From: a virus
Lineage: Duplodnaviria; Heunggongvirae; Uroviricota; Caudoviricetes
Strand: one strand, 5' to 3'
Virus record (IMG/VR): IMGVR_UViG_2690315748_000001
Coordinates: 1 to 60,651 of that record
Length of the DNA: 60,651 nt
Shown: one piece after another, positions 33,178-50,503 of the stretch
Layout: the number at the start of each line of letters is the position of its first letter
How positions within the stretch are numbered: the first letter of the stretch is position 1
The notes under the pieces: generated by a model
What the model was told of the DNA's origin: nothing
Database searches by the model: none
What the model saw: only the letters and a program-made list of their open reading frames with translations
Translations under genes and position numbers: made by a program

Positions 33178-34248
33178 GTGGTTAACACAATGGTAAACAT
33201 TAAAAGTAAATCCGCATTCTTTAAAGCGGTAAACATGGTATCATCTAAAATGGAAGGTGACAGAGCCGCACGCATGGCACTAGCTCATGCAATCGTTTCT
33301 AATTGCAGACTAACAGAAATAAACGAACTGTTCGAACGCGAATCAATGACTACACTTGTGAAGCTGGTAGTAACAGCAGGTATCACACCCGAAACAGTTG
33401 AAGAAGCTAAACAAACAAAGAAACCTAAACAAACTTCCAATGAGCCAAAGAAAGTACAAGCTAAACGTAAACAAAAAGTAATAGCTCCAGCCGAAAAGAT
33501 TGTATATACTGGATTACCTGATAGCATGAATGAGTTTACAAAGGAACAACGCGAAACAGTGGAAGGGATCATATTGCGATACATAGAGAACGCCAACAAA
33601 CAAGAAGGCGCACATATGGACGCGCAACGCTTCAACTATATTGATGGTATGAACGCACTAACAAACGTTACATCAATAGAAGACTTACAAGCGGTTATGG
33701 TTGCGTACTTCATGCGTGACTATGCAAGGAAAGTAATTAATAAGTATTTAGAAATGGGCGTAGGATACAAGAAGCTGAACACATCTAAAGCCCTTGAGAA
33801 CATCGAACAAAAGCAGTCTTATATGCAAGCATCCAGTAATAGAGGTAATATCCAAGCATTCGATGCGGACGATATCCTAAATGATCTGATTGTTGATGCA
33901 TATCGCCTAACATTTAATGAATCTATGTTTGATAATACAGGTAATGCACTGACAACAATATTTTACCGCATATCTAACGTTATCCAAGTGAGAACACGCG
34001 AATTGCGCAACCAAACCAAAGTAGTAACAGCCAAAAAACAATATATCCAAGAAGAAGGCGCATCATACAGTACAGAAGAAGAAGCTTTACAGATGGCGGT
34101 TGAAATGGGTATTTTCACAGATGCAGAAATGGAAATAATTCAATTGCGTGTAGCAGGATTTAAAAAGAACGAAATTGACAAAATGTTTGGGAAACGCACT
34201 GATAGAACTTTTAATAAAATGGAACAAAAATTTTATAAAGCAGTATAA
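33178..34248 (+). CDS. ECF-like RNA polymerase sigma factor with N-terminal extension
   Basis: Region-2-like DADDILNDLIVDAYRL...FDNTGNALTTIFYRISNV; region-4-like FTDAEMEIIQLRVAGFKKNEIDKMFG. Confidence 0.6.
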   Translation: MVNTMVNIKSKSAFFKAVNMVSSKMEGDRAARMALAHAIVSNCRLTEINELFERESMTTLVKLVVTAGITPETVEEAKQTKKPKQTSNEPKKVQAKRKQKVIAPAEKIVYTGLPDSMNEFTKEQRETVEGIILRYIENANKQEGAHMDAQRFNYIDGMNALTNVTSIEDLQAVMVAYFMRDYARKVINKYLEMGVGYKKLNTSKALENIEQKQSYMQASSNRGNIQAFDADDILNDLIVDAYRLTFNESMFDNTGNALTTIFYRISNVIQVRTRELRNQTKVVTAKKQYIQEEGASYSTEEEALQMAVEMGIFTDAEMEIIQLRVAGFKKNEIDKMFGKRTDRTFNKMEQKFYKAV

Positions 34249-34304
34249 AAAAGTGTGGGATTCTCTCGCGCATCCATATAACTAATATACAGGAGGGGAA
34301 AATA

Positions 34305-34460
34305 ATGAGCCTACAAGAAACTTTAGAAAGAGTATACCAACAACGCAAAGAAGCCCAAAAGAGAAAGCCTAAATTGAACATTCGCGGCGCGGTTATCATG
34401 ACCCAAAAAGAACTAGCTGCTTTAAATAGACGAAATTCAGAAATGTTTATTGTGTCCTAA
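34305..34460 (+). CDS. Small hypothetical protein (51 aa, not in ORF track)
   Basis: MSLQETLERV...; RBS AGGAGG; first gene after the first repeat promoter. Confidence 0.6.
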   Translation: MSLQETLERVYQQRKEAQKRKPKLNIRGAVIMTQKELAALNRRNSEMFIVS

Positions 34461-34488
34461 TACAAAACAAAAAACGGAGGGAATTAAA

Positions 34489-34782
34489 ATGACACTATCA
34501 GCGAAAGAGCTTGTTAAAAAAGCATGGAATGGCAAACACACTTGGAAAGATGACTATACAGTCAAAGTGGGGAAAATCAACCGTAATGAAGCGTATGAAA
34601 TTGTATATCAACCTAGCCATGAAGAGTTTGACAATCCCTATAAACTTTCTATCGCTAAATTGCAAGACGATTCGACAGTACAAGGGGAATATCTTGAACA
34701 TTATAACAGCTTAGATGCTGCAATGAATGTGGTTGAACAACTCAAAAAAAATAGCAAACAGGAGGAACAAAAACATGTTTAA
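34489..34782 (+). CDS. Hypothetical protein
   Basis: RBS GGAGG, ATG at 34489. Confidence 0.7.
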   Translation: MTLSAKELVKKAWNGKHTWKDDYTVKVGKINRNEAYEIVYQPSHEEFDNPYKLSIAKLQDDSTVQGEYLEHYNSLDAAMNVVEQLKKNSKQEEQKHV

Positions 34783-35116
34783 AAAGTTCATTATTGCAAT
34801 GCTTCTAGTCGTATCATTCATAGGTGCAACACTTCAAGAATCAGCAAACGCATATACCACAACAAACGAAAGAATCGAATATACAGACACTATCAAAATC
34901 GAAAATGCTTCATATAGTGAAATAGATGGAGTGTTCTATGTATATACAGTCAAGGATCAAACAGGTGGCTTTTGGGTTATGGACTTTGAACCGCTAAAGG
35001 GTGAAACGTTAGAACAATTCAAAAAGCGCGTCATAGGTCGCTATCTGATTGTTAAATATTTAGATGATGTACAAACAGAAGACGAAACAGAAATAACAGG
35101 GAAATATATTTGGTGA
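34775..35116 (+). CDS. Putative exported protein
   Basis: Signal-peptide-like MFKKFIIAMLLVVSFIGATLQESANA. Confidence 0.7.
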   Translation: MFKKFIIAMLLVVSFIGATLQESANAYTTTNERIEYTDTIKIENASYSEIDGVFYVYTVKDQTGGFWVMDFEPLKGETLEQFKKRVIGRYLIVKYLDDVQTEDETEITGKYIW

Positions 35117-35243
35117 GAATGGGCATACGCTCATTCTCTTTTTTTGATTTTAAAATGTCGTGCTAAAATGAATTTAGCGTGTGATTTTAGGATCAAAACA
35201 TATAACTATATATGAGGGAAATAAGTATAAAGGGGATAAGATA

Positions 35244-35633
35244 ATGAGTAAATTTATTAAAGTGGAAACCAGTTTTAAAGTAGGTTCAATGAATAGCATA
35301 GTGGGAACATTTGAGATGAGTAGCAGCACCTTTGACAATGATATTAGCAAGTTAAAAAAGTTTTTAACATATGCATTTAATGATGAGCATTCAAACGTGA
35401 TCTGTGACATTCAAGTGTGGGACGACAGTTATAAAGTAAATGATAAAGAGTCTGTAAGGATAATACATGACTGGTACAATAACAGCTTTGACGAGCGAAC
35501 GTATAATGAGCTTGAAAAATCATATTCGAATAGTCTAGTCAGAGACTATGGAACAGAAGGTAATGCTAAAAAGGAAATGAAAAAGCGCATTCTCAAGTTA
35601 ACCAAAGAGATAAACAACAAAATACAAAATTAA
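35244..35633 (+). CDS. Hypothetical protein
   Basis: Follows repeat promoter; RBS AAGGGG. Confidence 0.7.
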   Translation: MSKFIKVETSFKVGSMNSIVGTFEMSSSTFDNDISKLKKFLTYAFNDEHSNVICDIQVWDDSYKVNDKESVRIIHDWYNNSFDERTYNELEKSYSNSLVRDYGTEGNAKKEMKKRILKLTKEINNKIQN

Positions 35634-35708
35634 ATTTATACGAGTGTGGGATTTTATTCCACACTCGTATAACTATATATGAGGTAAAAATACATAACAT
35701 AAGGGGAA

Positions 35709-35963
35709 ATGAAAAAAATGAAAACTGTACAACAACTCGCACAAGCTAACAATGATAAAAAGATTGGTAGTCACCAAGTGAAGTATTCTAAACAAGAAGA
35801 AGGAACTAGATTCTTTATATACTATAACACCACAATTTGTACTGTGGATGATGTGAACAAAACATTTAGTATTGATGCAAGCTATGGCACACAATCCACC
35901 ACACGCGCATGTAATGCCTATCGTAGACACTTTTTAGATGAGGGCTACAGTGAAATTGTATAA
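35709..35963 (+). CDS. Hypothetical protein
   Basis: Follows repeat promoter; RBS AAGGGG. Confidence 0.7.
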   Translation: MKKMKTVQQLAQANNDKKIGSHQVKYSKQEEGTRFFIYYNTTICTVDDVNKTFSIDASYGTQSTTRACNAYRRHFLDEGYSEIV

Positions 35964-36040
35964 ATCATTTAAAAGGCGTGGGGATCGTCTCGCGCCTTTA
36001 TATTAGCATACATAATATAATCAAAGGGAGTTTTTAATAT

Positions 36041-36304
36041 ATGTTGAAAACTATGCTTTTACTCAAGGCTTTAATTTCTTTTGCTTCTACAATTGAAACA
36101 GAAGAATATACAGTGACAGACACACATATTGTCCAAGATGGTTATACATTTATGAAGTCTGTCAACCTCACAGAAGGTACGCAACTATGGTTTACCGCTG
36201 ATAATGTAGTAGGTGACAATAGACTTAAAGTTGGCGATATAGTGACAGGTGTATTTAATGATGAACGCTTAAATGAGGATCAATTTTTTGTATATAAAAA
36301 TTAG
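36041..36304 (+). CDS. Hypothetical, possibly exported protein
   Basis: Hydrophobic N-terminus; RBS AAGGGAG. Confidence 0.65.
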   Translation: MLKTMLLLKALISFASTIETEEYTVTDTHIVQDGYTFMKSVNLTEGTQLWFTADNVVGDNRLKVGDIVTGVFNDERLNEDQFFVYKN

Positions 36305-36484
36305 TTGAAGGTTAATTATTAATAACACACATGTATAGGCGCGTTAGCTACGCGCCTTTTTCATGCCTGAAAACATGTATCAAACTCATTTTGGTGTGTG
36401 TTTTTGTGCTTGAACCAAATAACTATATATTGAGCTAATAGAATGAATGAAAATAAATAAAATAATATGGTGGTGTATTAAGTA

Positions 36485-36700
36485 ATGGAACGTATAGAGT
36501 TTTTAAAAGGTGTTATTGAAGGAATGACAAAAAACTGTATAAAGTCTCTTCCCATTAAGCAAAATGACTTAGAGCCTGTCAAAAGTATTATAGCGGATAA
36601 AGAAGATAGAGATTCTTTCATAATTACAGATAATCATGGTCGCCTTACACTAAAATATGAAAACAAGAAAAATAACAGAATGACGCTTTTTAGTGAATGA
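36485..36700 (+). CDS. Hypothetical protein
   Basis: Follows repeat promoter. Confidence 0.6.
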   Translation: MERIEFLKGVIEGMTKNCIKSLPIKQNDLEPVKSIIADKEDRDSFIITDNHGRLTLKYENKKNNRMTLFSE

Positions 36701-36737
36701 CATATCAATACACCATATCATTTAAGGAGAATTTTAC

Positions 36738-36872
36738 ATGAAGTTTAAAAATAAAATTGATGTTTATTTTGATCTGCAAGGTGATACAGAAGGTCAACTC
36801 TTATATTATGGTATGATCGGTGTTATGGTGTTTGTTATGGTAGGTGGTACGCTTGGGAATCTTTTAAATTAG
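36738..36872 (+). CDS. Small membrane peptide (44 aa, not in ORF track)
   Basis: MKFKNKIDVYFDLQGDTEGQLLYYGMIGVMVFVMVGGTLGNLLN; RBS AAGGAG. Confidence 0.6.
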   Translation: MKFKNKIDVYFDLQGDTEGQLLYYGMIGVMVFVMVGGTLGNLLN

Positions 36873-36936
36873 TGTGTGATTTTATCATTCACTTGTATAA
36901 TTATATATGAAACCAAAACAAAAGGAGACAATTCAC

Positions 36937-37311
36937 ATGTTTAAATCATTCAACGAAATCACGGAAGCAATCAAGGCTGATAAAACATTACCATTCAAAA
37001 TTATCGTGGAAGGTGAAACATATTTCACAGTCGAAGACGCAGAAGGATTCCGCGCATACATGCAACTTGAAACATTGGGATTTAGCAAAAGGTTTGAATA
37101 TGCACTTTCCTTGTCGTGTAGCACTGTCCACAAGCCAAACAGAAAGACAGGTTCAGGGCGTAAAGGCGTAGAATGTCCACCTGATTCCACTTTGGAAACT
37201 ATCGTTAATTGTCTAAACAGAACACTTGATGAATCAAAGCGACGTATCACATTAGGACAAGAAAGAATGGATACACGCAAGCCGCACGAAAACGGAAAAT
37301 ATTTGGTTTAA
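36937..37311 (+). CDS. Hypothetical protein
   Basis: RBS AAAGGAG, ATG at 36937. Confidence 0.7.
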   Translation: MFKSFNEITEAIKADKTLPFKIIVEGETYFTVEDAEGFRAYMQLETLGFSKRFEYALSLSCSTVHKPNRKTGSGRKGVECPPDSTLETIVNCLNRTLDESKRRITLGQERMDTRKPHENGKYLV

Positions 37312-37332
37312 TGTGTGATATTCTTATAAAGG

Positions 37333-37584
37333 ATGGTGTCTCTAATGACTGTGCAATTAAAAAAAATAAAATTAATAGATTGGGTTGAAATAACTAAACA
37401 TGTAACAGTAAAAGCTGTTTATTATGTTGATGGAACATGTGAATGTGCTGTTATGACCAAGTGGTTTAAATTTGATGATTGGTCTATTGAAGAAGATTAT
37501 GTGAAGCCGAGAAAAAATATGAGTCCTATGGAAGTGTATGGTTATATTGAATATGAAGTGAAGCCAGCATATTTGGAAAATTGA
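37333..37584 (+). CDS. Hypothetical protein
   Basis: + strand array ORF; start uncertain. Confidence 0.6.
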   Translation: MVSLMTVQLKKIKLIDWVEITKHVTVKAVYYVDGTCECAVMTKWFKFDDWSIEEDYVKPRKNMSPMEVYGYIEYEVKPAYLEN

Positions 37585-37672
37585 ATTTAAGCTTATTTTA
37601 AAGAGCGTGGGAAACCGCGCTCTTTTTGTATAACTATATGTGGGAAAATAAAACGGAAAAGGATGATAGATA

Positions 37673-37984
37673 ATGGCAGAAAAACAGATCGTGAAGGATT
37701 TTGAAATGAACAAAATGAGAGTGGAAGTTAAAATTGTTTATGACTTAGGTGGAATGAACTACTTTACATCCAATGTTGATGCACGAGGTTATTATGTGCA
37801 TGTTCAACCATACACCGTAGAAAAACATGATGGTTATAGCATGAGAAAGATGTTGGGGTTTAGCGGTGTAAAAATGCTTCTACTAGAAGTAAATCGTAAA
37901 TCAGCTAAGAAGCTACAAGAAGCAGTAAACATGGTGAGCGATGAAATGATTGATACAATGGTAAAACAATGCAAGTTTGAATGA
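37673..37984 (+). CDS. Hypothetical phage protein
   Basis: Follows repeat promoter; RBS GAAAAGGA. Confidence 0.7.
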   Translation: MAEKQIVKDFEMNKMRVEVKIVYDLGGMNYFTSNVDARGYYVHVQPYTVEKHDGYSMRKMLGFSGVKMLLLEVNRKSAKKLQEAVNMVSDEMIDTMVKQCKFE

Positions 37985-38067
37985 AAAAAATGGGGATGTG
38001 TGGAATTGCATCCCCAATTGTATAACTACAATCAAACAAAAAACTAAACTGAATGGGGATATATAAA

Positions 38068-38385
38068 ATGAAAACATCTACAAACAACACTAACAGAAAC
38101 GCTAAGGCTTCTTTTGAGGAAATGCTACATAAGGCATTTGGATTAATCGAAAAAAAGGCTCATATGCAAATGGTGGTTCTGGAAGCGGTAGAACACATTC
38201 ACGAACAACTGCACAAGAAGTTCGACATTGTGTTAGACACAAAACTAAACATCATAGAATGTCCATGCCCGAAAAAATGCGGATCAATCAAGGTGTCAGT
38301 AATATTTACAGCTATGACATTTACGCCAGAAGGCATTGGAATGCATGAGGGTGAAATGTCGGGTATTATCATGCCGAAAAAATAA
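38068..38385 (+). CDS. Hypothetical protein
   Basis: Follows degenerate repeat promoter; RBS GGGG. Confidence 0.65.
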   Translation: MKTSTNNTNRNAKASFEEMLHKAFGLIEKKAHMQMVVLEAVEHIHEQLHKKFDIVLDTKLNIIECPCPKKCGSIKVSVIFTAMTFTPEGIGMHEGEMSGIIMPKK

Positions 38386-38410
38386 TAAAGCATAGCCAAC
38401 TACGGTTGGC

Positions 38411-38553
38411 TAGTTAATTCAGCACACAAGCTTTCCCTCTTATTACCCTTTTCCGCTTGTGTGCTGAATTAACTATATGGCTTTTAAAATTAGTGTTCAA
38501 TCGGGTTCCCTCTAATCACCCTTTTCCCCTGATTGAGCATTAATTTTTAAAGC
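38411..38553 (+). ncRNA. Candidate structured RNA: twin long stem-loops with near-identical C/U-rich loops
   Basis: 21-bp perfect stem (38411-38431/38455-38475) and 26-bp stem with three G-U pairs (38480-38505/38528-38553); both loops TTCCCTCTwATyACCCTTTTCC. Confidence 0.6.
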
Positions 38554-38603
38554 TGTGTAATTATTAGCTTTTATTATATAACTATATATGAGGTGATAAA
38601 ATA

Positions 38604-39062
38604 ATGAACATTAAAAGTGCAAGTTTCACTGATAGAATGGGAAGCGTTACATATGAAGATGGCACTATTGAACACATGACATATGATGAATATATTATTA
38701 AGCAGCGCAATTTTCAATACACTTCGATTGCTCAACTCATACGATACCTTGATAGGAAAAGCGCATTTTATAGTGCTGGTCATAAAAGGTCAATTGAAAG
38801 GGTGACAGTGTTTGAAAATAGGATGGAGATTTTTGACTTATCGGATAAAGATGTAATGACAAACGATGAACACAAGAAAGTCGCTAGGCTTCTTCTACGC
38901 TATCAACGCTATTGTTATTACTGTAAGGAAATTTTACCACAATGGCGAGAAGTTGATCGTATTAACTTTGCTGACAACTCTGTAGAAGTAGTTCAAATTA
39001 ATAGGTATGGTGAAAAACGTCATGTTATGGTGACAGCTCCGCATGGTGATGCTTGTTATTAA
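38604..39062 (+). CDS. Hypothetical protein
   Basis: Follows repeat promoter; RBS GAGGTG. Confidence 0.7.
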   Translation: MNIKSASFTDRMGSVTYEDGTIEHMTYDEYIIKQRNFQYTSIAQLIRYLDRKSAFYSAGHKRSIERVTVFENRMEIFDLSDKDVMTNDEHKKVARLLLRYQRYCYYCKEILPQWREVDRINFADNSVEVVQINRYGEKRHVMVTAPHGDACY

Positions 39063-39140
39063 TTTTTAGTTTTTATCGTGTGTTTTTGATGTGAACTCAT
39101 ATAACTATATACGAACAAAAAAATGAAAGGATGATATGAC

Positions 39141-39470
39141 ATGGAAATTCAAAACGGAAAATTCTCACTGATCGAAGCGGACTTAACAAAAGAGGACTTC
39201 AAGCGCGAATGGAGCCACATTGAACAGGCTGGCGTATATGCTTTACTTGATGAATTTTTGTCAGAATTTTATGACGAACAGATGAACGCAAATAGCTTTT
39301 TTGGTCTTGCTTGGACAAGTTCAGGAAGGTTTAGCGAACTTGGTGTGCAAAGTCCAGACATTACAATTGATGGAAATGAGCTAAATGCATTTCTCATTCG
39401 GAACAATAACCAATTGATTGCACATTGTTTTGATGAAGATGAAAATGATCTATTCTATGAAGTCCAATAA
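39141..39470 (+). CDS. Hypothetical acidic protein
   Basis: Follows repeat promoter; RBS AAAGGA. Confidence 0.7.
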   Translation: MEIQNGKFSLIEADLTKEDFKREWSHIEQAGVYALLDEFLSEFYDEQMNANSFFGLAWTSSGRFSELGVQSPDITIDGNELNAFLIRNNNQLIAHCFDEDENDLFYEVQ

Positions 39471-39548
39471 ATGACAAACAAGCCCATGACTATGGTATAA
39501 TGGTCATGGGCTTTCTTACTCATAAAGACATAGGAAAGCGGTGTTTAA

Positions 39549-39809
39549 GTGGATATTCAAACGTTAAAAGAATTGATTCAGGAAAAGGTGTCAAGGCTTA
39601 AAAGAGTTGAAAAAAACATGCAAACCTTACTTGCTGAAATAAATAATATGAATATTGGATTGCCAGAGGATCAAGCAGAAAGATATGTATGTCTTGCTGA
39701 AAGATTGAGATGGTTTAGCAAGAGACTTGATGACCTATCATATGAAGCAGAACATTTATCATCTGAATTAGCGACTTTAAAAATGATTGAAAATCAAATG
39801 AGTGTGTGA
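39549..39809 (+). CDS. Hypothetical coiled-coil protein
   Basis: Stop codon lies inside the next repeat (GTG TGA). Confidence 0.65.
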   Translation: MDIQTLKELIQEKVSRLKRVEKNMQTLLAEINNMNIGLPEDQAERYVCLAERLRWFSKRLDDLSYEAEHLSSELATLKMIENQMSV

Positions 39810-39836
39810 TTTTAGTTCAATTGTATATAACTATAT

Positions 39837-40166
39837 ATGAGGGTAGAAAAGAAAAGGATGATACATATTAAAACGCCAACAGATTTTAAAGGAACTATTC
39901 AATACTATAATCCAAGCAAACACTATAGTAGGCTTCCAATCCACGCTAGATTAATTAAAGGTGGAGGTTTCGAAGCAAAACATGATGACGAGGGGAATCA
40001 TGTTGCAATGTGTCATGGTAATCTTGGTTTGCCTGTCTTGTCATACGATGAAAGCGCAACACCTGAGAATGTAACATGCATCACCTGTTTAAGAATGCTT
40101 GAATCAGGTGAAAGATATGGTTCACATAGCGATGAAAGCGAAGAAGATGCGTCAAGTTGGATTTAA
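39837..40166 (+). CDS. Hypothetical protein with Cys/His cluster
   Basis: H...MCHG...VTCITC; start may be the downstream ATG. Confidence 0.65.
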   Translation: MRVEKKRMIHIKTPTDFKGTIQYYNPSKHYSRLPIHARLIKGGGFEAKHDDEGNHVAMCHGNLGLPVLSYDESATPENVTCITCLRMLESGERYGSHSDESEEDASSWI

Positions 40167-40225
40167 TTTTCTGTGAGTGTGGGATTTAGTCCTACGCTCA
40201 TATAGCTATAAGTGGAGGTGATCGA

Positions 40226-40351
40226 ATGAACGAAGACAAATGTAAAGTGTGCAACGGAACGCAAATTGAAACAGTGCGAGTCAAAGAGCCTGATGGTGAA
40301 GGTGGGTTTGATTGGGTTAGTGAAGATCGTCCATGCCCAGCTTGCCAATGA
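40226..40351 (+). CDS. Zn-ribbon micro-protein (41 aa, not in ORF track)
   Basis: CKVC...CPAC; RBS GGAGGTG; follows repeat promoter. Confidence 0.65.
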   Translation: MNEDKCKVCNGTQIETVRVKEPDGEGGFDWVSEDRPCPACQ

Positions 40352-40373
40352 TTTAAATTGAAGTTTACTTTTA

Positions 40374-40598: not shown

Positions 40599-40650
40599 CT
40601 AAATAAAACCTTGACTTTATATTCTTTTTCATAGAAGGAGATTAATAAAA

Positions 40651-41052: not shown

Positions 41053-41067
41053 AAGGAGGAATTTAAA

Positions 41068-42828: not shown

Positions 42829-42909
42829 TGTGTAATTTTAGTCTACGCCTATATAAGAATAGGCGTGGGCAATAAGTTACATATTATAAATAGGAAGGTT
42901 GATGATTCG

Positions 42910-43461: not shown

Positions 43462-43526
43462 ATCGTGTGATTTGATCTTGCTTCTATATAACTATAGAAG
43501 CAAGCAATTAATCATATGATAGGGAG

Positions 43527-44024
43527 TTGTCGAAAGTGAAAACGATAAGAGTTAATTTGCTATTTCATGAGTTAGAAACATTGGATGAATTATTAAGAAA
43601 TAGTGAAGCTATTAGCCAAAACTATAGGCTAAAATTTTCAACACGAAATGCACTGTCTTGTTTGTATTTATATTTCAATCCAAGTGCAGGATATACACAC
43701 AAAGAACAATATGACTTCTACTATAGCAAAGAGCCATTAATATACAGTAAAGAACACATCTTTGGCATTATCAATTACATCAGTGAAATTATTGAGACTT
43801 CACGCAATGCTGGGAAAGGAACGAATATTCCAATTGTATTTTTATTGGCAGATAAAGCAATTAAATTAGGCATGGATAAAACTGCATTCACTGAAAGAGT
43901 AAAAATGTTCTTTTCTGAAAGTGCATACAGACATTCAGAATACAGAGAGTATGCGATGACAGGGACAGCCAAAAAGGAAAATGTTCAGAAGCGCATCGAA
44001 TTATTGTGGGATGCAATTAAATAA
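43527..44024 (+). CDS. Hypothetical protein
   Basis: Follows hairpin-type repeat promoter; start may be GTG at 43536. Confidence 0.65.
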   Translation: MSKVKTIRVNLLFHELETLDELLRNSEAISQNYRLKFSTRNALSCLYLYFNPSAGYTHKEQYDFYYSKEPLIYSKEHIFGIINYISEIIETSRNAGKGTNIPIVFLLADKAIKLGMDKTAFTERVKMFFSESAYRHSEYREYAMTGTAKKENVQKRIELLWDAIK

Positions 44025-44043
44025 CAATTGTAGGAGGATTAAC

Positions 44044-44331
44044 ATGGCAGAGTTTACGTATGGCGGTAACAAACTGGAGTACGACTTTACCACTGTCTTA
44101 TTCGGCAAGGGTGAATTTCTCGATAATGATGGCGAGATTCAAGAAATTAATGCAATTCATCTTCCAACTGAACCAAACGGAAAGCATATATCTGTTTTTG
44201 ATAAAGAGTTTGAAGATAAAAGTGTTGTTGAATGGAGAAGTTATGCCGATGGAAAAATTTTAAGTTTTGTTTGCGAGAAAGTTGAACATTGGAATACAGA
44301 TTGGAGAAAAGGAAGAGATCATAAAGACTAA
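44044..44331 (+). CDS. Hypothetical protein
   Basis: RBS AGGAGG, ATG at 44044. Confidence 0.7.
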   Translation: MAEFTYGGNKLEYDFTTVLFGKGEFLDNDGEIQEINAIHLPTEPNGKHISVFDKEFEDKSVVEWRSYADGKILSFVCEKVEHWNTDWRKGRDHKD

Positions 44332-44371
44332 AATAGAAGCAAGCAATTAATCATAAAATAGGAGGATTTAC

Positions 44372-44572
44372 ATGGGACAAACCAAAACGAAAAGTAAATC
44401 TACAATCATTACATATCAAGGCTGGAAGATCAAGCAGAAGAAAGATCAATACGATATGGATGTATTCCTTTGCTACACTAAAGAAGAATGGGAATATGGT
44501 TCTGGATTGCGTCAGGCAGAATGGGAAGCTGGCACAATGCAGGAAGCAAAGGATTTCATAGACAGTTATTAA
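44372..44572 (+). CDS. Hypothetical protein
   Basis: RBS AGGAGG. Confidence 0.7.
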   Translation: MGQTKTKSKSTIITYQGWKIKQKKDQYDMDVFLCYTKEEWEYGSGLRQAEWEAGTMQEAKDFIDSY

Positions 44573-44586
44573 TTAAGAGGTGAAAT

Positions 44587-44781
44587 ATGAAAAAATCATA
44601 TGAAGTTATATGTGAGGTTAAGGATTGGGATACTCCAGAACAAGTTGAATTGAAAAATAAAATGAAGAATCTTTATATAAAGCAAGAAAAATTTGAGGAA
44701 AAGTATAAATGTGTCAGACAATATGCTGAGTGTGGTTATGAAATCAACCAAATAAAATATATACTTAAAAAAGAAAATTAA
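44587..44781 (+). CDS. Hypothetical protein
   Basis: RBS GAGGTG. Confidence 0.65.
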   Translation: MKKSYEVICEVKDWDTPEQVELKNKMKNLYIKQEKFEEKYKCVRQYAECGYEINQIKYILKKEN

Positions 44782-44863
44782 AAATCACACTTCAATTAAT
44801 ATATCAAATGAAAATATGTTTGTTCGGTTAATAAATTATAAATAAATATGAAACTAAACGAGG

Positions 44864-45160
44864 GTGATCGGCATGGAAAATAAAATTCCATTTGAAGAAT
44901 TGGAAGTCAATAAAGATTGGAAAGAAGCTGTAATTGTATTTTCCGATGAAAGCTTTGGTAATCGTGGATTTACTGTCGAAGAAAGAAGTTACAAGGTTTC
45001 AGGGGATGCTAAATTTTTTGATCCAAACATGATTGGCAGTTCTTTATTTGGTAACTGTTTGGATGGTAAAGATATAGGCGTTCGGCTTGATTGGTATATG
45101 AATCTAAAGCCAGACGAAGGGAGACGTTGGGAAGTAGAATATTGTTATATCGTTAAATAA
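44864..45160 (+). CDS. Hypothetical phage protein
   Basis: RBS GAGGGTG. Confidence 0.7.
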   Translation: MIGMENKIPFEELEVNKDWKEAVIVFSDESFGNRGFTVEERSYKVSGDAKFFDPNMIGSSLFGNCLDGKDIGVRLDWYMNLKPDEGRRWEVEYCYIVK

Positions 45161-45213
45161 TTTCTAACATCGGTGTGTGATTTACATGTGCTGATATATA
45201 ACTATATAATGAG

Positions 45214-45612
45214 GTGATCGACGACATGATGAAAGTTACAGTTGAATTAAATGGGAAAACAATGGGTGATATTGAAAATGCTTTTGACGAAGCAAAAAGG
45301 AAAGTTTTAGAAGGGTATAAAAACGGATTTGATAGTAACGATTCTGGAAGCTACTCTTTTGAAGTTGATGGCGAAGAAGAAGTGCCGAAATTTGATGTAG
45401 GAGATTCAGTAAAAGTAGCAAGCGACAACGATAATGATGGGTATGATGATTTTCGTGACAAGACGCTGATCGTTACACATGTAGCGACAAGTACCGATGA
45501 ACACCCAGGATATGATGAATCCATGGAAGGTATAGCATTGTATGATCTGGAAACAGAAGATGGCGAGGAAATTGGTTGTTCTCTATATGAATATGAATTG
45601 GAGGAAACATAG
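45214..45612 (+). CDS. Hypothetical acidic two-domain protein
   Basis: Follows repeat promoter; RBS GAGGTG. Confidence 0.7.
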   Translation: MIDDMMKVTVELNGKTMGDIENAFDEAKRKVLEGYKNGFDSNDSGSYSFEVDGEEEVPKFDVGDSVKVASDNDNDGYDDFRDKTLIVTHVATSTDEHPGYDESMEGIALYDLETEDGEEIGCSLYEYELEET

Positions 45613-45695
45613 AACGTAATGTGTTATTTGATCTTACACCTATATAACTATAGGTGTAAGCGATTAGTTACATATTACAAAGAGGGTGTGGCTCA

Positions 45696-45869
45696 ATGCT
45701 GACATTTAAAAGAAAATACCAAGTGAAAATGATTGGAAGGGTATTACAGGTTGGAGATTATACGAGTGACAATGAAGGGAATGCGATCCTAGTTGTTGGT
45801 ATTACGTCTGTAAGTGTTGAAGGCGAGCATATGATCATTGAAGGATATGGGGTTCCAAGAGAATACTGA
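45696..45869 (+). CDS. Small hypothetical protein (57 aa, not in ORF track)
   Basis: MLTFKRKYQV...; RBS AGAGGG. Confidence 0.55.
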   Translation: MLTFKRKYQVKMIGRVLQVGDYTSDNEGNAILVVGITSVSVEGEHMIIEGYGVPREY

Positions 45870-45895
45870 TATAAGTTTGAGGAGGTTGATATAGA

Positions 45896-46021
45896 ATGGC
45901 GAAATGTTTGGATTGTAATATGGTCTATACTATATATGGTGGAAGCAAAGGTTCAAAGTGTCCTGCTTGTAAGAGTGAAAAAATTGATACATCAAAAGAA
46001 ATTAGATTAAAAGATAAATAA
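45896..46021 (+). CDS. Zn-ribbon micro-protein (41 aa, not in ORF track)
   Basis: CLDC...CPAC; RBS GAGGAGG. Confidence 0.65.
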   Translation: MAKCLDCNMVYTIYGGSKGSKCPACKSEKIDTSKEIRLKDK

Positions 46022-46070
46022 AATATGACTGTCTTCTCTTTATAAGAGCCTTATAACGCCTATCCTTTTA

Positions 46071-46253
46071 ATGTGGAGGTTTATTATTGTGAAAATTAAG
46101 TTATCAGTAACAATAGAAATAAATGAAAAAGATTATCCAAATTTGTCAAAAGAGGAAATTAAAAATCATTTTCAAGGTAATTTCGATCTTTACATGCAAC
46201 AAGTTGAAGCTGAAACAAAAAATTTATTAAAAGATATTAGTACATCTAAATGA
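46071..46253 (+). CDS. Hypothetical protein
   Basis: Stop codon inside junction motif; start probably GTG at 46090. Confidence 0.6.
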   Translation: MWRFIIVKIKLSVTIEINEKDYPNLSKEEIKNHFQGNFDLYMQQVEAETKNLLKDISTSK

Positions 46254-46287
46254 AATGTGAGTTCTATTTATATAGGAGGAATGAAAA

Positions 46288-46560
46288 ATGGATAATACAT
46301 TTGAAATTATTAAAATGTGGGCAACTGCTGACAAAGATTGTGGTTTTATTGAAGTATCAAGAGATGAAGAAACAGCAAAAGAGTGGATGAACGCTGATGA
46401 AGAAGCGACACAGGTCATTCAGGGTTGGGGCATTATTGACAAACTTACTAATTTGATGCCTGATGACGCAAGAGACTTTCACTATAAGTTAGAAGACGCT
46501 CAAAGTGAATTAAATGAGTTCATGGAAACTGGCAGATGGACTTTCGACGTATCTAAATAA
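46288..46560 (+). CDS. Hypothetical acidic protein
   Basis: RBS AGGAGG; stop codon inside junction motif. Confidence 0.7.
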   Translation: MDNTFEIIKMWATADKDCGFIEVSRDEETAKEWMNADEEATQVIQGWGIIDKLTNLMPDDARDFHYKLEDAQSELNEFMETGRWTFDVSK

Positions 46561-46595
46561 AATATGACTTCCATTTATATAGGAGGAATGAAGCA

Positions 46596-46766
46596 ATGAG
46601 AAAAAAAGAAGAATTAATTGCTTATTATGAAAGAAATTTAGAGAAAGTAAAAACAATGCATGACCCACTTAATTATAATGATGATTTGAGCAAAGACAAA
46701 TGCAATGATTTTATAAGATTTGCAGAAAAAGAACTCGAAGCGGTAAGAAACGGAAGAGAATGGTAA
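46596..46766 (+). CDS. Small hypothetical protein (56 aa, not in ORF track)
   Basis: MRKKEELIAYYERNL...; RBS AGGAGG. Confidence 0.6.
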   Translation: MRKKEELIAYYERNLEKVKTMHDPLNYNDDLSKDKCNDFIRFAEKELEAVRNGREW

Positions 46767-46788
46767 ATAAAATGTATAAGATGGGAGG

Positions 46789-46998
46789 TTGCGAAAAATG
46801 ATAAAACCAATTGAAGGAGATATTCTTATATTTAAGGATAACGCATATGGCGAAACTGGTATAGTGATTAGAGTTTTAGAAGATGGTAGAGTTCGTGTTG
46901 CAACAGGTGCAACACGCAGAAATATACCACAAGAATTGATTCTTGGTGTTGTCGATGGAAACGATTGTAGCAGAGAGATTGTGTCAAATATTTTGTAA
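46789..46998 (+). CDS. Small beta-barrel-like hypothetical protein
   Basis: EGDILIF...GIVIRV pattern; start probably ATG at 46798. Confidence 0.6.
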   Translation: MRKMIKPIEGDILIFKDNAYGETGIVIRVLEDGRVRVATGATRRNIPQELILGVVDGNDCSREIVSNIL

Positions 46999-47036
46999 AT
47001 AAAATGACTTCCATATAGATACAGGAGGGTTAAAAT

Positions 47037-47330
47037 ATGAGAACAGTCAATGAAATTATTTATCGTCCACACAAAGGTAACATTGACGAATCTATGGAGC
47101 AAGCAAAGGAATTTGCATCAGTACAAGAGATGAAAGAATACATCGTAAAAGATTGGAATAATCTATTTGATATAGAGGATATTGTAATAAAGGAAGATGC
47201 ATATAAAGATGATCGAATTGGCTGGAATGATGTAAGGTTGGTAACTATTAAACGTCTTGGCGAACAAGACAACATAGCATTATATGGATGTCCGCAAGCA
47301 ATCGGATATTGTGCAACTGATTATATATAG
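47037..47330 (+). CDS. Hypothetical phage protein
   Basis: RBS AGGAGG. Confidence 0.7.
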   Translation: MRTVNEIIYRPHKGNIDESMEQAKEFASVQEMKEYIVKDWNNLFDIEDIVIKEDAYKDDRIGWNDVRLVTIKRLGEQDNIALYGCPQAIGYCATDYI

Positions 47331-47395
47331 GGGATTCGTTGACAGTTCTAATTGATGATTTGCCCCCACCTCTTTTGAGAAAGGAGTAAACTTAA

Positions 47396-47713
47396 ATGAA
47401 TATTACACAGGCGAATAATAAATTTGACAAACTCGAAGTGAAAATAAATGAAATTTTATCAATCATCCCTGTTAACCTAATAAAAGAAGCATCCGAATTG
47501 TCAGAGAGCCTAAGAGAAGGAATGGAAGAACAAATTGAAAGATTAGAAAATAAGAGTAAATTAAATGAAGATCAAGAATCTACATTAGATCGGTTTCAAT
47601 CAACAATTGAAGCAGTTACAAACATAGATTCAATTTTATCATCTTTAACTAATGCTGTTGAAGAATTTGAAAGTCTGAAACGTAATATTGAAGATGCGAA
47701 AGAAACAATATAA
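47396..47713 (+). CDS. Hypothetical coiled-coil protein
   Basis: RBS AAAGGAG. Confidence 0.7.
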   Translation: MNITQANNKFDKLEVKINEILSIIPVNLIKEASELSESLREGMEEQIERLENKSKLNEDQESTLDRFQSTIEAVTNIDSILSSLTNAVEEFESLKRNIEDAKETI

Positions 47714-47767
47714 GGAGTGCTATTTCGCGTTACATTTATATAACTAATATCAAAGAGGTGAAATATA

Positions 47768-48022
47768 ATGTTATTTACAGATAAACTTAAAGATTGGTAT
47801 GGAGAGTTTACTGATTATGCAAAACTAAAAATGACAGAAGATACAGCCATTTTTCTTGTTGAAACCAAAGACAACTTTGAAATCGCTAGGATATTCCATG
47901 TAGGCAACAGCAAAGAAATTAGTATTGACTTGAAGGTTGTTAAAGGGGATACTTTTTCTATGATGAATGATTTAGCAAGCTTTCTTCTTAAAAATAAATA
48001 TGATTACATAGGAGGTAAATGA
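47768..48022 (+). CDS. Hypothetical protein
   Basis: Follows repeat promoter; RBS GAGGTG. Confidence 0.7.
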   Translation: MLFTDKLKDWYGEFTDYAKLKMTEDTAIFLVETKDNFEIARIFHVGNSKEISIDLKVVKGDTFSMMNDLASFLLKNKYDYIGGK

Positions 48023-48621
48023 TAATGGTTAATATAGATGAAAAAGGATTGCCAGAATATTGTTTTGTAGCGCTTGAAACAACAGGGGAAGTGGTTATGG
48101 TTCATAGATATCAAATGGGGTATAGTCCTACTAGAAAAGGAAATGAGCCATGGTATGGTGAAGAAACTGCTGATGCGGTAAATGCTGATCGTGGTATCAC
48201 TAAGGCTCAAGCGATAGCTATGAAGAATGGTTCGATGTTCGGATGGGATATACCAGCCGCTAATCCTAATTTGTACGATGAAAACGGCATGTTTAAAAAG
48301 GAAAAACTGAAAGAGGTTACAGGTGAATTTACAGGCAAAAAGTTTTCTGATAGATACAATCTTGATGAAATTATTTCAAAAGCGGAGTCGGATGGATGGG
48401 AAGTCGATACAGAGGACTTTGACAAAGGTGGAGACTGGATTTGGTTGCGTGACATGCACAATAGAATGTTACAAGTTAAATTTAATACGTTTAACTATCA
48501 ATTTTTTGTATGGAATCCTTTAAGCGATGAACCTTGTGCAACACATCTTAGTGTTGATCTTGAAGGGCAGGAATGGTACGACTATCTTTTGAATCTATTT
48601 TTCAAAGATGAAATGAAATAA
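48019..48621 (+). CDS. Two-domain conserved hypothetical protein of mobile elements
   Basis: N-domain LPEYCF...GITKAQAIAMKNGSMFGWDIPAANP, a pattern I recognise from phage/ICE proteins of unknown function. Confidence 0.7.
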   Translation: MIMVNIDEKGLPEYCFVALETTGEVVMVHRYQMGYSPTRKGNEPWYGEETADAVNADRGITKAQAIAMKNGSMFGWDIPAANPNLYDENGMFKKEKLKEVTGEFTGKKFSDRYNLDEIISKAESDGWEVDTEDFDKGGDWIWLRDMHNRMLQVKFNTFNYQFFVWNPLSDEPCATHLSVDLEGQEWYDYLLNLFFKDEMK

Positions 48622-48721
48622 ATGTGTTCTGAAAGCGTGTCTTCATCTTTAGATGATGGCATGTTTTGAAAACATATTAAATAGTAGGTTTCAAATATAA
48701 CAGCTACTTGGAGGTTTCTCT

Positions 48722-49309
48722 ATGGGAGAATTAATATATATGAACAAAAACGATGATGAAGGGGTGTCAAAGTGGATGGTTGATGGAGTCAATGCAAATG
48801 GATTAACAAAGGGTGTTGACTTCAATATCATTTCGTTTATGGTTTTAGATAGAGATTTTGCTTCTCATTCTTTGGGCGGTTTCCTTGGAAAGAATAGCAC
48901 TAAACTATTTAAAAATGTTGCAGGAGGATATCGCGCATTTGCTGAAAGTTTGGTTGCAGGAAAAAACGTTGAAGCAGTTGCGGAAACGCCATATCCAAAG
49001 ATTGATAATCAGGTGTTTTACAGAATCAATGAGGAAGTTGACATTGATCTAGCTACAGAAATTGGTCTTGGTGTTGTTCTTTATAAGGGTGAATATCTGC
49101 TTTACTGTCCATCCAATACAGGGAATCCAATGGATGCAGTATCGGAAATGCTTACAATTAAAGTATACTTTCAGCTAAAGCATCCAGATGATATAGACAT
49201 GAAACTTAAATCTTCTTTCGAAAAATATCAGGATATTATTATGAGCAACATGATCGCAAACAGTGCAAAGCATATGAATCACCTGAAAGAAATTTTTACA
49301 GATGTGTGA
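48722..49309 (+). CDS. Hypothetical protein
   Basis: RBS GGAGG; stop codon inside next repeat (GTG TGA). Confidence 0.7.
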   Translation: MGELIYMNKNDDEGVSKWMVDGVNANGLTKGVDFNIISFMVLDRDFASHSLGGFLGKNSTKLFKNVAGGYRAFAESLVAGKNVEAVAETPYPKIDNQVFYRINEEVDIDLATEIGLGVVLYKGEYLLYCPSNTGNPMDAVSEMLTIKVYFQLKHPDDIDMKLKSSFEKYQDIIMSNMIANSAKHMNHLKEIFTDV

Positions 49310-49359
49310 TTTGCTTCTATAGTTATATAACTATTATATGAATTAATCATGAACAGGGA

Positions 49360-49767
49360 GTGAAAATGATGTTAGAGTTTGATGATAAAAGTGTGGGTAC
49401 TGTTACGATTAAGAAGAATATTACTGAAAACGACATTGCGTGTATCATGGTGGGCACCTTTGAAGGTGGAAGTAATTATTGGGTTGGACTCGACAACAAA
49501 GACAAACCAGAATGGGAAGCTAAACCAAAGGATGAGCCTAATTCCACTTGGGCAACGAAGATACTTTTGGATGGTGGTAGTATAAAATTCTATTCTCTTG
49601 AAGGAGATGAGGATGAGGATTGGATTCTAACGCTAGACAAGCTTATAAAGGGGTTACAGTTGAATTGTGAACAGCGTCCGCATGATTGCGATCTGGAACA
49701 AGGTGACGCTGGAACATGTGACTGCATCTTGCAGTATGCTTTGTTTGGTGAGGTTGTCTATGGATAA
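49360..49767 (+). CDS. Hypothetical phage protein
   Basis: Follows repeat promoter; ends QYALFGEVVYG. Confidence 0.7.
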   Translation: MKMMLEFDDKSVGTVTIKKNITENDIACIMVGTFEGGSNYWVGLDNKDKPEWEAKPKDEPNSTWATKILLDGGSIKFYSLEGDEDEDWILTLDKLIKGLQLNCEQRPHDCDLEQGDAGTCDCILQYALFGEVVYG

Positions 49768-49850
49768 TCTGATAACCATAACGCCGTATAATTAAGTATA
49801 AATTAAAATAAAAATACATACACTAGGAGGTGATGGAATAAAAAAGGAGA

Positions 49851-50069
49851 GTGATTATATTGAAATCGAATTTGTTACCTAAAGGCAAGTTAGACAAGTG
49901 GATTTTGAGTTATAAGGATGTTGAGGGGTTTGTTGTCTTAGAGTTAGACAACAAAGGAGAAATCTTCTTAGAGCTGATTGCTATTAGAGAAAGGGGAGTA
50001 AACATGGATTCTGTATCTGTATTTCCTCCAAGATCAAATGTTACTTACGCTCAATTTCTCATATCATAG
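49851..50069 (+). CDS. Hypothetical protein
   Basis: RBS AAAGGAG. Confidence 0.55.
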   Translation: MIILKSNLLPKGKLDKWILSYKDVEGFVVLELDNKGEIFLELIAIRERGVNMDSVSVFPPRSNVTYAQFLIS

Positions 50070-50280
50070 CTTTGTCGAAACTTGTCCTTCATATAAGCGC
50101 GTGAATTATCATACCCTATATGAAGGACAAGTTCATTTTAAAGGGGGAAATTCACATTATAGTCGAATCATCAGTACGCGGTTGGCAAGTAAAAACCCCT
50201 AAAAGATTCCTGCCTACAGTATACAGGATAAATTTCTGTGATATAATGTTAATAGGATTCGCAAGGAGGTCGCTTCTTGC

Positions 50281-50418
50281 ATGAAAAACATCGGAGATCG
50301 TATTTGTGAAGTTCATTTTAATATAACTGGTTATTCGTTGACTAAAGAGGTTCTTGTATCTTACATTTTCTTCTTTATATTATTTTTTATAGTATCAATA
50401 TTTACTGGCGGCAGATGA
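50281..50418 (+). CDS. 45-aa membrane peptide with sequestered RBS (type I toxin-like; not in ORF track)
   Basis: Extended -10 TGATATAAT (50239-50247); RBS inside hairpin GCAAGGAG-GTCG-CTTCTTGC; C-terminal TM VLVSYIFFFILFFIVSIF. Confidence 0.55.
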   Translation: MKNIGDRICEVHFNITGYSLTKEVLVSYIFFFILFFIVSIFTGGR

Positions 50419-50503
50419 AAACCGAAGAAAGTTCTAACAAGTGTGTGATTTTAATGAACTGTCATATAACTATAAACAAACGAATTGAAGGGAGAAATTA
50501 ATC

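Follow-up and report, generated by a model that had tools for sequence, protein, structure and literature searches.

The question raised by this locus is which protein reads a two-box, promoter-like motif that recurs in front of small genes in a large Paenibacillus phage-plasmid. The DNA analyzed here, called the window, is the first 60.6 kb (60,651 nucleotides) of a single 154,442-bp replicon, virus record IMGVR_UViG_2690315748_000001, and the motif is found downstream of an open reading frame (ORF) at positions 33178 to 34248 of the plus strand, whose product is named P0001. An initial annotation of the window, made from the letters alone, had proposed that host SigA makes a phage sigma factor resembling those with extracytoplasmic function (ECF) from this ORF, and that this factor acts at a private two-box promoter ahead of an array of small genes. 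This core reading agrees with the fold, profile, distribution, co-occurrence and co-variation data described below, and we consider it likely that P0001 is a very divergent phage protein of the sigma70 family, made by host SigA, which turns on an early accessory regulon.

Repeated two-box promoter-like motif and the sigma-like gene

A search for exact GTGKGA-N16-TATAAC returned 10 matches, all on the plus strand between 34255 and 50470, where 0.01 would be expected. With up to two mismatches, eight further copies were found on the same strand of the same stretch, giving a total of 18. A weight matrix built from the 18 copies and applied to the whole 154,442-bp replicon with a threshold of ≥12 bits recovered exactly those 18 and nothing else. 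When the spacer was freed to 12 to 20 nt, it was 16 nt in every exact copy. The extended consensus is aGTGTGTGATTTTa-N-TATAACTATATATGAGG, which is longer than the version first described. All 18 copies are intergenic, with 19 to 52 nt from the end of the -10 box to the start codon and a Shine-Dalgarno sequence at each start. The stop codon of the sigma-like gene occupies 34246 to 34248, and the first copy begins at the 7th base past it, at 34255. The checks of pattern, spacing and gene position thereby bore out what the initial annotation had stated on the number, strand, intergenic position, exact spacing and following ribosome binding sites of the copies and on the place of the first one; its range of 18 to 20 copies is reached by adding two degenerate candidates, at 42571 (GTGTGA-16-TACCTA) and 32213 (GTGTGA-16-TATGAC). 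The features are as follows.

33178 to 34248, plus strand: sigma-like gene encoding P0001, 356 amino acids from GTG 33178
34255 to 34282, plus strand: promoter copy 1, GTGGGA-16-TATAAC
35179 to 35206, plus strand: promoter copy 2, exact pattern
35646 to 35673, plus strand: promoter copy 3, -35 box as 5′ arm of the hairpin 35636 to 35672 (-23.8 kcal/mol, z -7.4)
36396 to 36423, plus strand: promoter copy 4, GTGTGT-16-AATAAC
36874 to 36901, plus strand: promoter copy 5, -10 box TATAAT
37607 to 37634, plus strand: promoter copy 6, -35 box within the terminator-like hairpin 37600 to 37625, followed by TTTTTG (z -6.3)
38555 to 38582, plus strand: promoter copy 7, found by mismatch search
39078 to 39105, plus strand: promoter copy 8, found by mismatch search
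39804 to 39831, plus strand: promoter copy 9, exact pattern
40179 to 40206, plus strand: promoter copy 10, -10 box TATAGC, -35 box in the hairpin 40172 to 40202 with G-U pairs (z -5.4)
41775 to 41802, plus strand: promoter copy 11, whole promoter a 59-nt palindrome (41772 to 41830) centered on the -10 box (-33.7 kcal/mol, z -10.5)
42571 to 42598, plus strand: degenerate candidate copy, GTGTGA-16-TACCTA, before ORF 42616 to 42828
42830 to 42857, plus strand: promoter copy 12, GTGTAA-16-TATAAG, palindromic subclass (42826 to 42890)
43465 to 43492, plus strand: promoter copy 13, palindromic subclass (43462 to 43520, z -8.3)
45175 to 45202, plus strand: promoter copy 14, exact pattern
45621 to 45648, plus strand: promoter copy 15, palindromic subclass (45618 to 45676, z -4.9)
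47717 to 47744, plus strand: promoter copy 16, GTGCTA-16-TATAAC, the weakest copy (27 bits)
49304 to 49331, plus strand: promoter copy 17, exact pattern
50443 to 50470, plus strand: promoter copy 18, preceding the GmrSD_N/DUF262 gene, with a weak operator-like box (ACCGAAGAAAGTTC) just upstream at 50421 to 50434
34305 to 50418, plus strand: array of about 49 co-oriented small ORFs (32 to 200 amino acids; simple gene call), the predicted regulon
50504 to 52210, plus strand: last gene of the predicted regulon, 568 amino acids, GmrSD_N (DUF262) domain found with Pfam

The -35 box agrees with TTGACA at three of six positions only, the final T of the -10 box is absent in 17 of the 18 window copies, and sites resembling the SigA consensus are no commoner in the array stretch than in shuffled sequence. 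In silico, the repeats look like a promoter class of their own, with -35 and -10 boxes that differ from the housekeeping consensus and stand at a fixed distance (16-nt spacer in 18/18). An arrangement in which TATAAC is the -35 box of a -10 box further downstream was rejected, as the start codon is too near (19 nt in copy 10). Straight after the -10 box most copies keep a block, TATATATGAGG, which is also kept across elements with differing -10 boxes; its GAGG is the Shine-Dalgarno sequence in some copies, and in others a second Shine-Dalgarno sequence follows.

The start codon of P0001 is more likely ATG 33190 than GTG 33178, because the database copy has 352 amino acids. No match was found by megablast with 33000 to 37000 or by tblastn with the ORF in 50,697 phage records, and sigma models gave 0 matches among 25 family members; neither Sigma70_r2 (PF04542) nor the region-4 models (PF08281/PF04545) recognize P0001. 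Since no sigma hidden Markov model (HMM) detects the protein, its description as ECF-like comes from fold and from profile-profile comparison.

The AlphaFold model of full-length P0001 (pLDDT 74, pTM 0.45) has a helical C-terminal half. Foldseek gave no usable match for this model, in which the domains are loosely packed. The C-terminal half was also modeled by itself, from an alignment of 29 family members (pLDDT 77). In an all-against-all structural search, which agreed for the two models, the top matches were the ECF sigma factors 5uxx_C (Z 8.2, 83 residues, root mean square deviation [rmsd] 3.1), 9m98_F (Z 8.2) and 5zx2_F (Z 8.0, 139 residues aligned). Residues 166 to 286 match sigma domain 2 of 5uxx_C (Z 8.1 to 8.2, 83 to 84 aligned, rmsd 3.1), 5zx2_F, 1h3l and 4nqw, residues 298 to 356 match sigma domain 4 of 8jzt, 3mzy, 8x6g and 3vep (Z 6 to 6.6), and the two sets of matches lie in the correct order along P0001. 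With the model of the C-terminal half, entire ECF chains align over 136 to 143 residues, and about 40 of the top 50 Foldseek matches were sigma chains, the best being 9a4r_A (an RPSH-RPOB entry, E 0.048), which is presumably B. subtilis SigH. The model and the structural matches give a layout in which about 160 N-terminal amino acids, comprising two helical domains and a disordered Lys-rich linker (residues 81 to 101), precede sigma domain 2 (residues ~166 to 290) and sigma domain 4 (residues ~298 to 356). With moderate strength, P0001 thus appears to have the fold of sigma domain 2 followed by that of sigma domain 4.

For the profile comparison, 10 ECF sigma factors were collected from three Paenibacillus/Brevibacillus genomes by a search with PF04542. 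Hhalign aligned the C-terminal half of the family with this set over 126 collinear columns that include regions 2 and 4 (probability 61%, E 7.9e-5). It paired DADDILNDLIVDAYRL with DAEDLxQExFxRAY and TTIFYRISN with STWLYRIAxN, and region 4 was also covered. As controls, the N-terminal half of the family reached 0.2% and the other sigma-like ORF of the window (22206 to 23315) 0.6%. The ORF and the peptide segments that the initial annotation had quoted are as described, and hhalign pairs the segments read as regions 2 and 4 with the true ones. The check by HMM and structure that it had proposed came out divided: the fold agrees (domain 2 then 4, ECF sigma factors on top), and no HMM matches. 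We concluded that a sigma-2/sigma-4 module probably makes up the C-terminal 190 residues, one that has diverged beyond the reach of HMMs and has an insertion of about 35 residues in sigma domain 2.

Relatives of the locus and co-variation of protein and promoter

A HMMER scan of 1.8 billion proteins found 25 representatives of the family, and 11 close relatives of P0001 are present in a 5.8-billion-protein cluster set. Homologues come from Paenibacillus lautus, P. agilis and P. alvei, where the contigs or plasmids bearing them measure 126 to 141 kb, and from several shorter contigs of 4 to 104 kb. Of 401 Paenibacillaceae species genomes searched, two contain the family, by way of the P. agilis and P. 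alvei elements that the sample already includes; a scan for related loci yielded only the known P. alvei plasmid in IMG/VR and nothing in JGI metagenomes. The comparison sample consisted of the DNA around 12 family members and of the full genome of Brevibacillus phage Sundance (134 kb), the closest named relative (helicase identity 63%). All loci except Sundance were located via the sigma-like gene, and Sundance was located via other genes.

The gene order is the same in all large elements: RecD-like helicase, recombinase, regulator, partition genes, helix-turn-helix protein, about 1 kb without genes, sigma-like gene and the array of small genes on the plus strand. In 14/14 elements the sigma-like gene heads an array of small plus-strand genes with the two-box motif and its 16-nt spacer. 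Across the arrays the promoter has the form GTGTGA(TTT), 16-nt spacer and TAnAnn box ahead of genes, the GTGTGA(TTT) box being constant in all examined elements except L012. The 5.9-kb contig L036, which has only the P0001-family gene and the array, still carries 16 copies. In Sundance, 15 copies of GTGTGATTTT-N-TACATT stand before small genes at the right genome end. The second gene from this end, gp193 (YP_009194243, “hypothetical protein,” 212 amino acids; minus strand, 42953 to 43627 of L002, 132949 to 133587 of the record), is a distant homologue of the C-terminal half of the sigma-like protein only (local profile E 8e-7) and, without the N-terminal 160 residues, is the minimal form of the sigma-like module. 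The family is annotated as hypothetical, for example in the published Sundance genome, because it is invisible to standard models. Neither gp193 nor the TACATT sites are mentioned in the Sundance genome paper (PMC4909266).

Arrays without the gene were searched for in IMG/VR and 185,579 species genomes with the pattern GTGTGATT-N14-TATAACTATA, which has 18 fixed bases. Six IMG/VR stretches and 13 species-genome stretches were found, all with single copies and, by our estimate, at about chance level; no motif array lacking the gene was seen in either collection. Relatives that keep the motif without the gene, named in the initial annotation as evidence that would speak against it, were not seen among the 14 elements. 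Some of the single copies look like orphans: 5301/2492 in L022/L017 (Paenibacillus terrigena), 6260 to 6291 on the minus strand of L028 (Paenibacillus sp. ACRRX) and 7870 on the minus strand of L025 (Brevibacillus porteri, 133.7-kb contig). They have the longer form of the motif, agcGTGTGATT...TATAACTATA, and behind it stand a Shine-Dalgarno sequence and a start codon. The family profile detected no sigma-like gene in these three genomes, the one weak match being a host NarL-type response regulator. The orphan copies may be chance matches, remnants or targets of a phage-delivered sigma factor.

While the -35 box and the spacer are constant, the -10 box is specific to the element, as listed here by locus.

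Window and L011: TATAAC
L008: (T/A)ATAAC
L005: TA(T/C)AAC
L007: TACAA(A/T/C)
L006: TATAAG
L004, L009, L013 and L036: TATAG(C/A)
L035: TA(T/C)AG(A/G)
L010: CATAG(T/G)
Sundance: TACATT

Position 5 of this box follows the protein column of N247, which is part of the loop that joins the helix DADDILNDLIVDAY to the long final helix of sigma domain 2 (RLTF-N-ES in the window). With Asp in this column the base is G (6/6 elements), and with Asn, Ser, Gly or a gap it is A (7/7), so that the co-variation of sigma factor and motif that had been suggested as a check is seen in 13/13 elements. The rule was drawn from four G elements and seven A elements and then applied to two members whose DNA had not been read. 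For both of these, the Asp-bearing P0019 and P0021, G was predicted, and their arrays show G in 16/17 and 16/16 copies. When the loop columns were left out of tree building, the best maximum-likelihood tree had five changes of the -10 state, and the five independent pairs that it offers are all concordant. A “specificity loop” before the last sigma-2 helix of ECF sigma factors reads a flipped -10 base (PMC6411747), and hhalign places N247 at or just before this loop, the residue-level equivalence being approximate. The most divergent member examined, P0029 of L012 (23% identity to the full-length protein of the window), has G-RVDRKF in region 4 versus GKRTDRTF, and its -35 box is also changed, to TGTG(C/T)T, a possible co-change seen in this single case. 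L012 has 14 sites between 3644 and 12358 with the upstream box (T/G)TGTG(C/T)TTT and TATAACTATATA unchanged. Taken together, the changes in the two boxes are expected of a sigma factor that reads both and would be difficult to account for were the -10 box read by host SigA or another protein.

On the reading favored here, ORF 33178 to 34248 would have a build like that of group 4 (ECF-type) sigma factors, in which the extra N-terminal residues are followed by sigma domain 2 and, after a linker, by sigma domain 4. The SigA holoenzyme of the host would transcribe the gene from an extended -10 promoter (TGATACAAT), and the protein would bind the host core RNA polymerase. The new holoenzyme would then initiate at the 18 GTG(T/G)GA(TTT)-N16-TATAAC promoters, at predicted start sites and with predicted timing, domain 4 reading the -35 box and domain 2 presumably reading the -10 box via the loop before its last helix. 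In this way the whole array of roughly 49 small genes, taken as early and accessory, would be switched on together with the GmrSD_N gene.

It is unlikely that P0001 is instead an activator that binds the GTGTGATTT box through a C-terminal helix-turn-helix of the LuxR/GerE type and recruits or remodels the host SigA holoenzyme in the manner of T4 MotA. For its C-terminal 50 to 60 residues, LuxR/GerE-type domains (DesR, Z 6.9; DosR, Z 6.2) are indeed as good a match as sigma region 4, one family member weakly matches Pfam GerE (E 9e-4), and no sigma HMM matches P0001; moreover, the -10 box resembles TATAAT at 5/6 positions and the spacer is within the SigA range. However, an activator would have no need of residues 166 to 290, which match sigma domain 2 in fold and profile, and the -10 box does not have the final T required by SigA. 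This box also varies among elements of one host genus, where the host sigma factor is unchanged, and its variable base follows a residue of the P0001 family and not the host.

A second sigma-like gene raises another alternative, namely that its product reads the array promoters and P0001 has a different role.

22206 to 23315, minus strand: second sigma-like gene, 369 amino acids, phrog_5767 “sigma factor,” 67% identical to Sundance gp13

Both PHROGs and the Sundance annotation call this gene a sigma factor, and it occurs in those relatives whose loci extend that far. Its own SigA promoter is under repressor control, with the box GCCGAAGAAAGTAC as spacer and TATAAT after it. We nevertheless regard this alternative as highly improbable. 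The protein has no Pfam match, is unrelated to the product of ORF 33178 to 34248 by BLASTP and has no profile similarity to ECF sigma factors (the 0.6% of the hhalign control). Its gene heads not the array but a minus-strand block that continues into virion genes, and it may be a candidate late-gene factor. The -10 variation follows the P0001-family residue, cognate promoters directly flank P0001-family genes both before and after, and L036 has its 16 copies with the P0001-family gene only.

Control of the sigma-like gene and organization of the array

Two features bear on the control of the sigma-like gene.

33107 to 33140, plus strand: host-SigA-type promoter of the sigma-like gene, TGGACT-17-TATGAT at 33107 to 33135, extended -10 TGATACAAT at 33132 to 33140
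33444 to 33457, plus strand: operator-like box GCCAAAGAAAGTAC inside the sigma-like gene, one mismatch to the dispersed box GCCGAAGAAAGTAC

The extended -10 sits 38 nt before GTG 33178, and TGnTAnnAT is aligned at the same place in L004, L005, L008 and L009. The SigA-like element that the initial annotation had placed near 33132 to 33140 is therefore present and conserved in four relatives, and it would fit host SigA. In most relatives a cognate promoter copy is also found upstream of the sigma-like gene, in Sundance within the terminal repeat, which would give positive feedback there; autoregulation is typical of ECF sigma factors. The dispersed box lies inside TTGACA-N17-TATAAT SigA promoters genome-wide, among them the promoters of the helicase and the second sigma-like gene. 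Its likeness at 33444 to 33457 falls in the codons of a conserved “PKK” within the otherwise variable disordered linker. Six relatives have a similar intragenic box at the homologous place (L004, 10255; L005, 10189; L008, 10216; L009, 10273; L010, 10252; L011, 10261), and other relatives have a similar operator-like box near the promoter. The intragenic box may allow a master repressor to hold the sigma-like gene off in the lysogen, or it may just as well be a by-product of Lys codons.

Many promoter copies have a second layer of structure. In eight elements, 52 of 130 copies fold with z < -2 into a hairpin that has the -35 box in its 5′ arm and its 3′ arm in the spacer, and a T run often leads from the hairpin into the -10 box. 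Three window copies have a strong terminator-like hairpin with the -35 box in its 5′ arm, and in three others such a hairpin is weaker. G-U pairs in some of the hairpins point to a role at the RNA level, most simply termination of the upstream unit. In four window copies (41775, 42830, 43465 and 45621) a palindrome centered on the -10 box takes in the entire promoter, beginning with the -35 box and reaching about +25; three of the four were folded, with z down to -10.5. The palindromic copies share the word (A/T)ATAAGTTACA(C/T)ATTA after the palindrome. Relatives maintain the promoter palindrome via compensating changes in the arms (L004, 18598; L006, 18157; L009, 17902 and 18229). Such copies could be bound by another regulator, or read-through RNA could be cut there by RNase III. 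Conservation of GTGTGA merely as a hairpin arm was ruled out, as 60% of the copies have no hairpin; because these, too, keep the boxes and the spacing, the hairpin is an addition and not the reason for the motif. We propose that the hairpin and palindrome copies insulate each short unit from read-through. More improbable still than the preceding alternatives is that the repeats are mainly structural or processing elements of RNA or DNA, whether terminators, sites of RNase III cleavage or sites at which recombination shuffles gene cassettes, and not promoters, since the hairpins around the -35 box, the four long window palindromes and the gene content that varies between repeats, all of which would suit such elements, are set against exact 16-nt spacing in copies lacking a hairpin, conservation of the two boxes and not of paired positions, an orientation and start-codon distance that suit promoters, and the compatibility of hairpins with promoter function.

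Several points weigh against P0001 being a sigma factor. It has no match in Pfam (whole protein, E up to 1; C-terminal half, E up to 10), PHROGs or NCBIfam, and the family profile gave only noise against PDB sequences. A Z of about 8 is within the range of unrelated helical models, no single structural match is significant alone, Foldseek found no match at E ≤0.001 for the C-terminal half, and the hhalign probability of 61% is under the usual 90% confidence line. The co-occurrence of gene and motif is partly built in, because all loci except Sundance were found through the gene. The tree behind the co-variation is weakly resolved, with well-supported branches under a single independent pair, so that the formal test is powerless, and p 0.05 is out of reach for the five concordant pairs of the best tree. 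As the initial annotation had observed, the window has no cognate copy upstream of the sigma-like gene, in which it is unlike most relatives. The conserved block TATATATGAGG downstream of the -10 box is left unexplained by a sigma factor, and binding to the core polymerase and the transcription starts are predictions from sequence.

Likely as we hold the phage sigma factor itself to be, a wider proposal is offered with more doubt than conviction. Tentatively, P0001 and its relatives might be an unrecognized sigma family private to Sundance-like phage-plasmids of ~130 to 150 kb, forming a natural series of orthogonal sigma-promoter pairs in which the loop residue (Asp versus Asn/Ser) reprograms position 5 of the -10 box (G versus A), each mini-operon is insulated by the promoter itself, acting also as a terminator or long palindrome, and the intragenic operator-like repressor box keeps the sigma gene off in the lysogen.

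The initial annotation had counted about 45 small genes in the array; the array stands, and a simple gene call gives about 49. Its last gene does have the DUF262 domain that had been assigned to it, and for the lysogeny-block function attached to that domain no basis was found. The ten largest array ORFs had no match in Pfam. Arrays of relatives, whose gene content between the repeats varies, contain ArdA, ART-PolyVal ADP-ribosyltransferase, Thg1, DUF4258, YodL, TreK, PC4 and MazE/Fic, so that components of toxin-antitoxin systems are represented. This content and the position beside the genome end in Sundance suggest that the array consists of early anti-defense and host-takeover genes.

Elsewhere in the window, minus-strand genes between 0.6 and 25.7 kb encode a tape measure protein, virion proteins, an exonuclease, the PHROG “sigma factor” (22206 to 23315) and the RecD-like helicase, and plus-strand genes from 25.9 kb encode a recombinase, a partition protein and helix-turn-helix proteins. 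SPbeta-like YonG, YonK and YomH are among the annotated structural genes of Sundance. The gene-free stretch of about 950 bp 5′ of the sigma-like gene has a C/A-rich tract at 32912 to 33040 of the plus strand (CACACC and CTCACAC repeats), the reverse complement of which contains several GTGTGAG words similar to the -35 box. L005 likewise has a C/A-rich tract in the gene-free stretch before its sigma-like gene. This stretch corresponds to the place of the ends and the 323-bp terminal repeats in the linear Sundance genome.

Comparison with known systems

Phage-encoded sigma factors are a textbook way to time gene expression, and to our knowledge only few families of them are known, all of which can be found by sequence. 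The kind of system proposed here, a phage sigma factor with private promoters, is thus well known; the family is new and is undetectable by standard models. If confirmed, it would supply a full sigma-promoter pair for Paenibacillus/Brevibacillus, together with a dozen specificity variants found in nature and a candidate code by which one residue sets a base of the -10 box, which would help to understand how sigma domain 2 reads DNA and would provide orthogonal expression parts for Firmicutes. About 49 unassigned small genes would become one early regulon and a good hunting ground for anti-defense and host-takeover functions, and more sigma families might hide in phage dark matter, to be spotted by a repeated two-box motif beside a helical ORF. 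It is the matched natural variants that lend the system value beyond one additional example of a phage sigma factor.

P0001 does not group with the late activators RinA/ArpU/LtrC of Gram-positive phages (PMC3753634), which control the packaging and lysis operon, as it has no Pfam or PHROG match and its predicted regulon consists of small accessory genes, not morphogenesis genes. The middle promoters of T4 MotA/AsiA are similar in that a phage-specific upstream box takes the place of the host -35 box beside an AT-rich -10 box. Unlike MotA/AsiA, P0001 has a sigma-2-like domain, and its -10 box is element-specific and not of the host type.

The initial annotation had also likened the motif to the dispersed regulatory repeats of SPbeta-like phages, a comparison that did not hold. 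The likeness to SPBRE, the element of MrpR (YopR) in SPbeta (PMC10516654), is that of a dispersed intergenic repeat in a large SPbeta-related temperate phage. Unlike an operator of the SPBRE type, which is the same word in or beside SigA promoters genome-wide, the motif studied here is a two-box promoter confined to one array (34 to 50 kb). The SPBRE-like repeat of this phage is a different word, GCCGAAGAAAGTAC, which fills or adjoins consensus SigA promoters elsewhere in the genome.

With the phage sigma factors of Bacillus phage SPO1 (gp28, gp33/34) and phiEco32 (gp36), each of which defines a temporal class, P0001 as proposed here would share the principle that a sigma factor made by the host redirects the host core polymerase to promoters found only in the phage. 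The structure of coliphage phiEco32 gp36 is 9m7y (PMC12276001), and 9m7y_F is among the structural matches of P0001 (Z 5.4 to 5.6). Unlike these factors, P0001 has no detectable sequence relation to them, belongs to a temperate plasmid-like element, has other promoter sequences and would control an accessory array instead of replication or virion genes. Within its own family, Sundance gp193 differs from the window protein by the missing 160 N-terminal residues and by its -10 box, TACATT.

The comparison with ECF sigma factors shows both differences and the closest likeness. Typical ECF promoters have a GGAAC-type -35 box and a CGT-type -10 box, unlike the GTGTGA and TATAAC of the P0001 promoters. 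Also unlike ECF sigma factors, P0001 is missed by every sigma HMM used, has about 35 residues inserted in sigma domain 2 and about 160 extra N-terminal residues with a Lys-rich linker, is accompanied by no recognized anti-sigma gene, is encoded by a phage-plasmid and is predicted to control an array of tiny genes. Like M. tuberculosis SigH (5zx2), Bartonella RpoE (5uxx) and B. subtilis SigW (5wuq), it appears to have sigma domain 2 followed by sigma domain 4 and no region 3. Its family has the collinear motifs DAxD..Q/N... and ..W/I L/F Y R I..N and the helix-turn-helix of region 4, and its system has a two-box promoter with a rigid spacer and, in most relatives, a self-promoter upstream of the gene. 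As in ECF sigma factors, it may be the loop before the last helix of sigma domain 2 that tracks a base of the -10 box.

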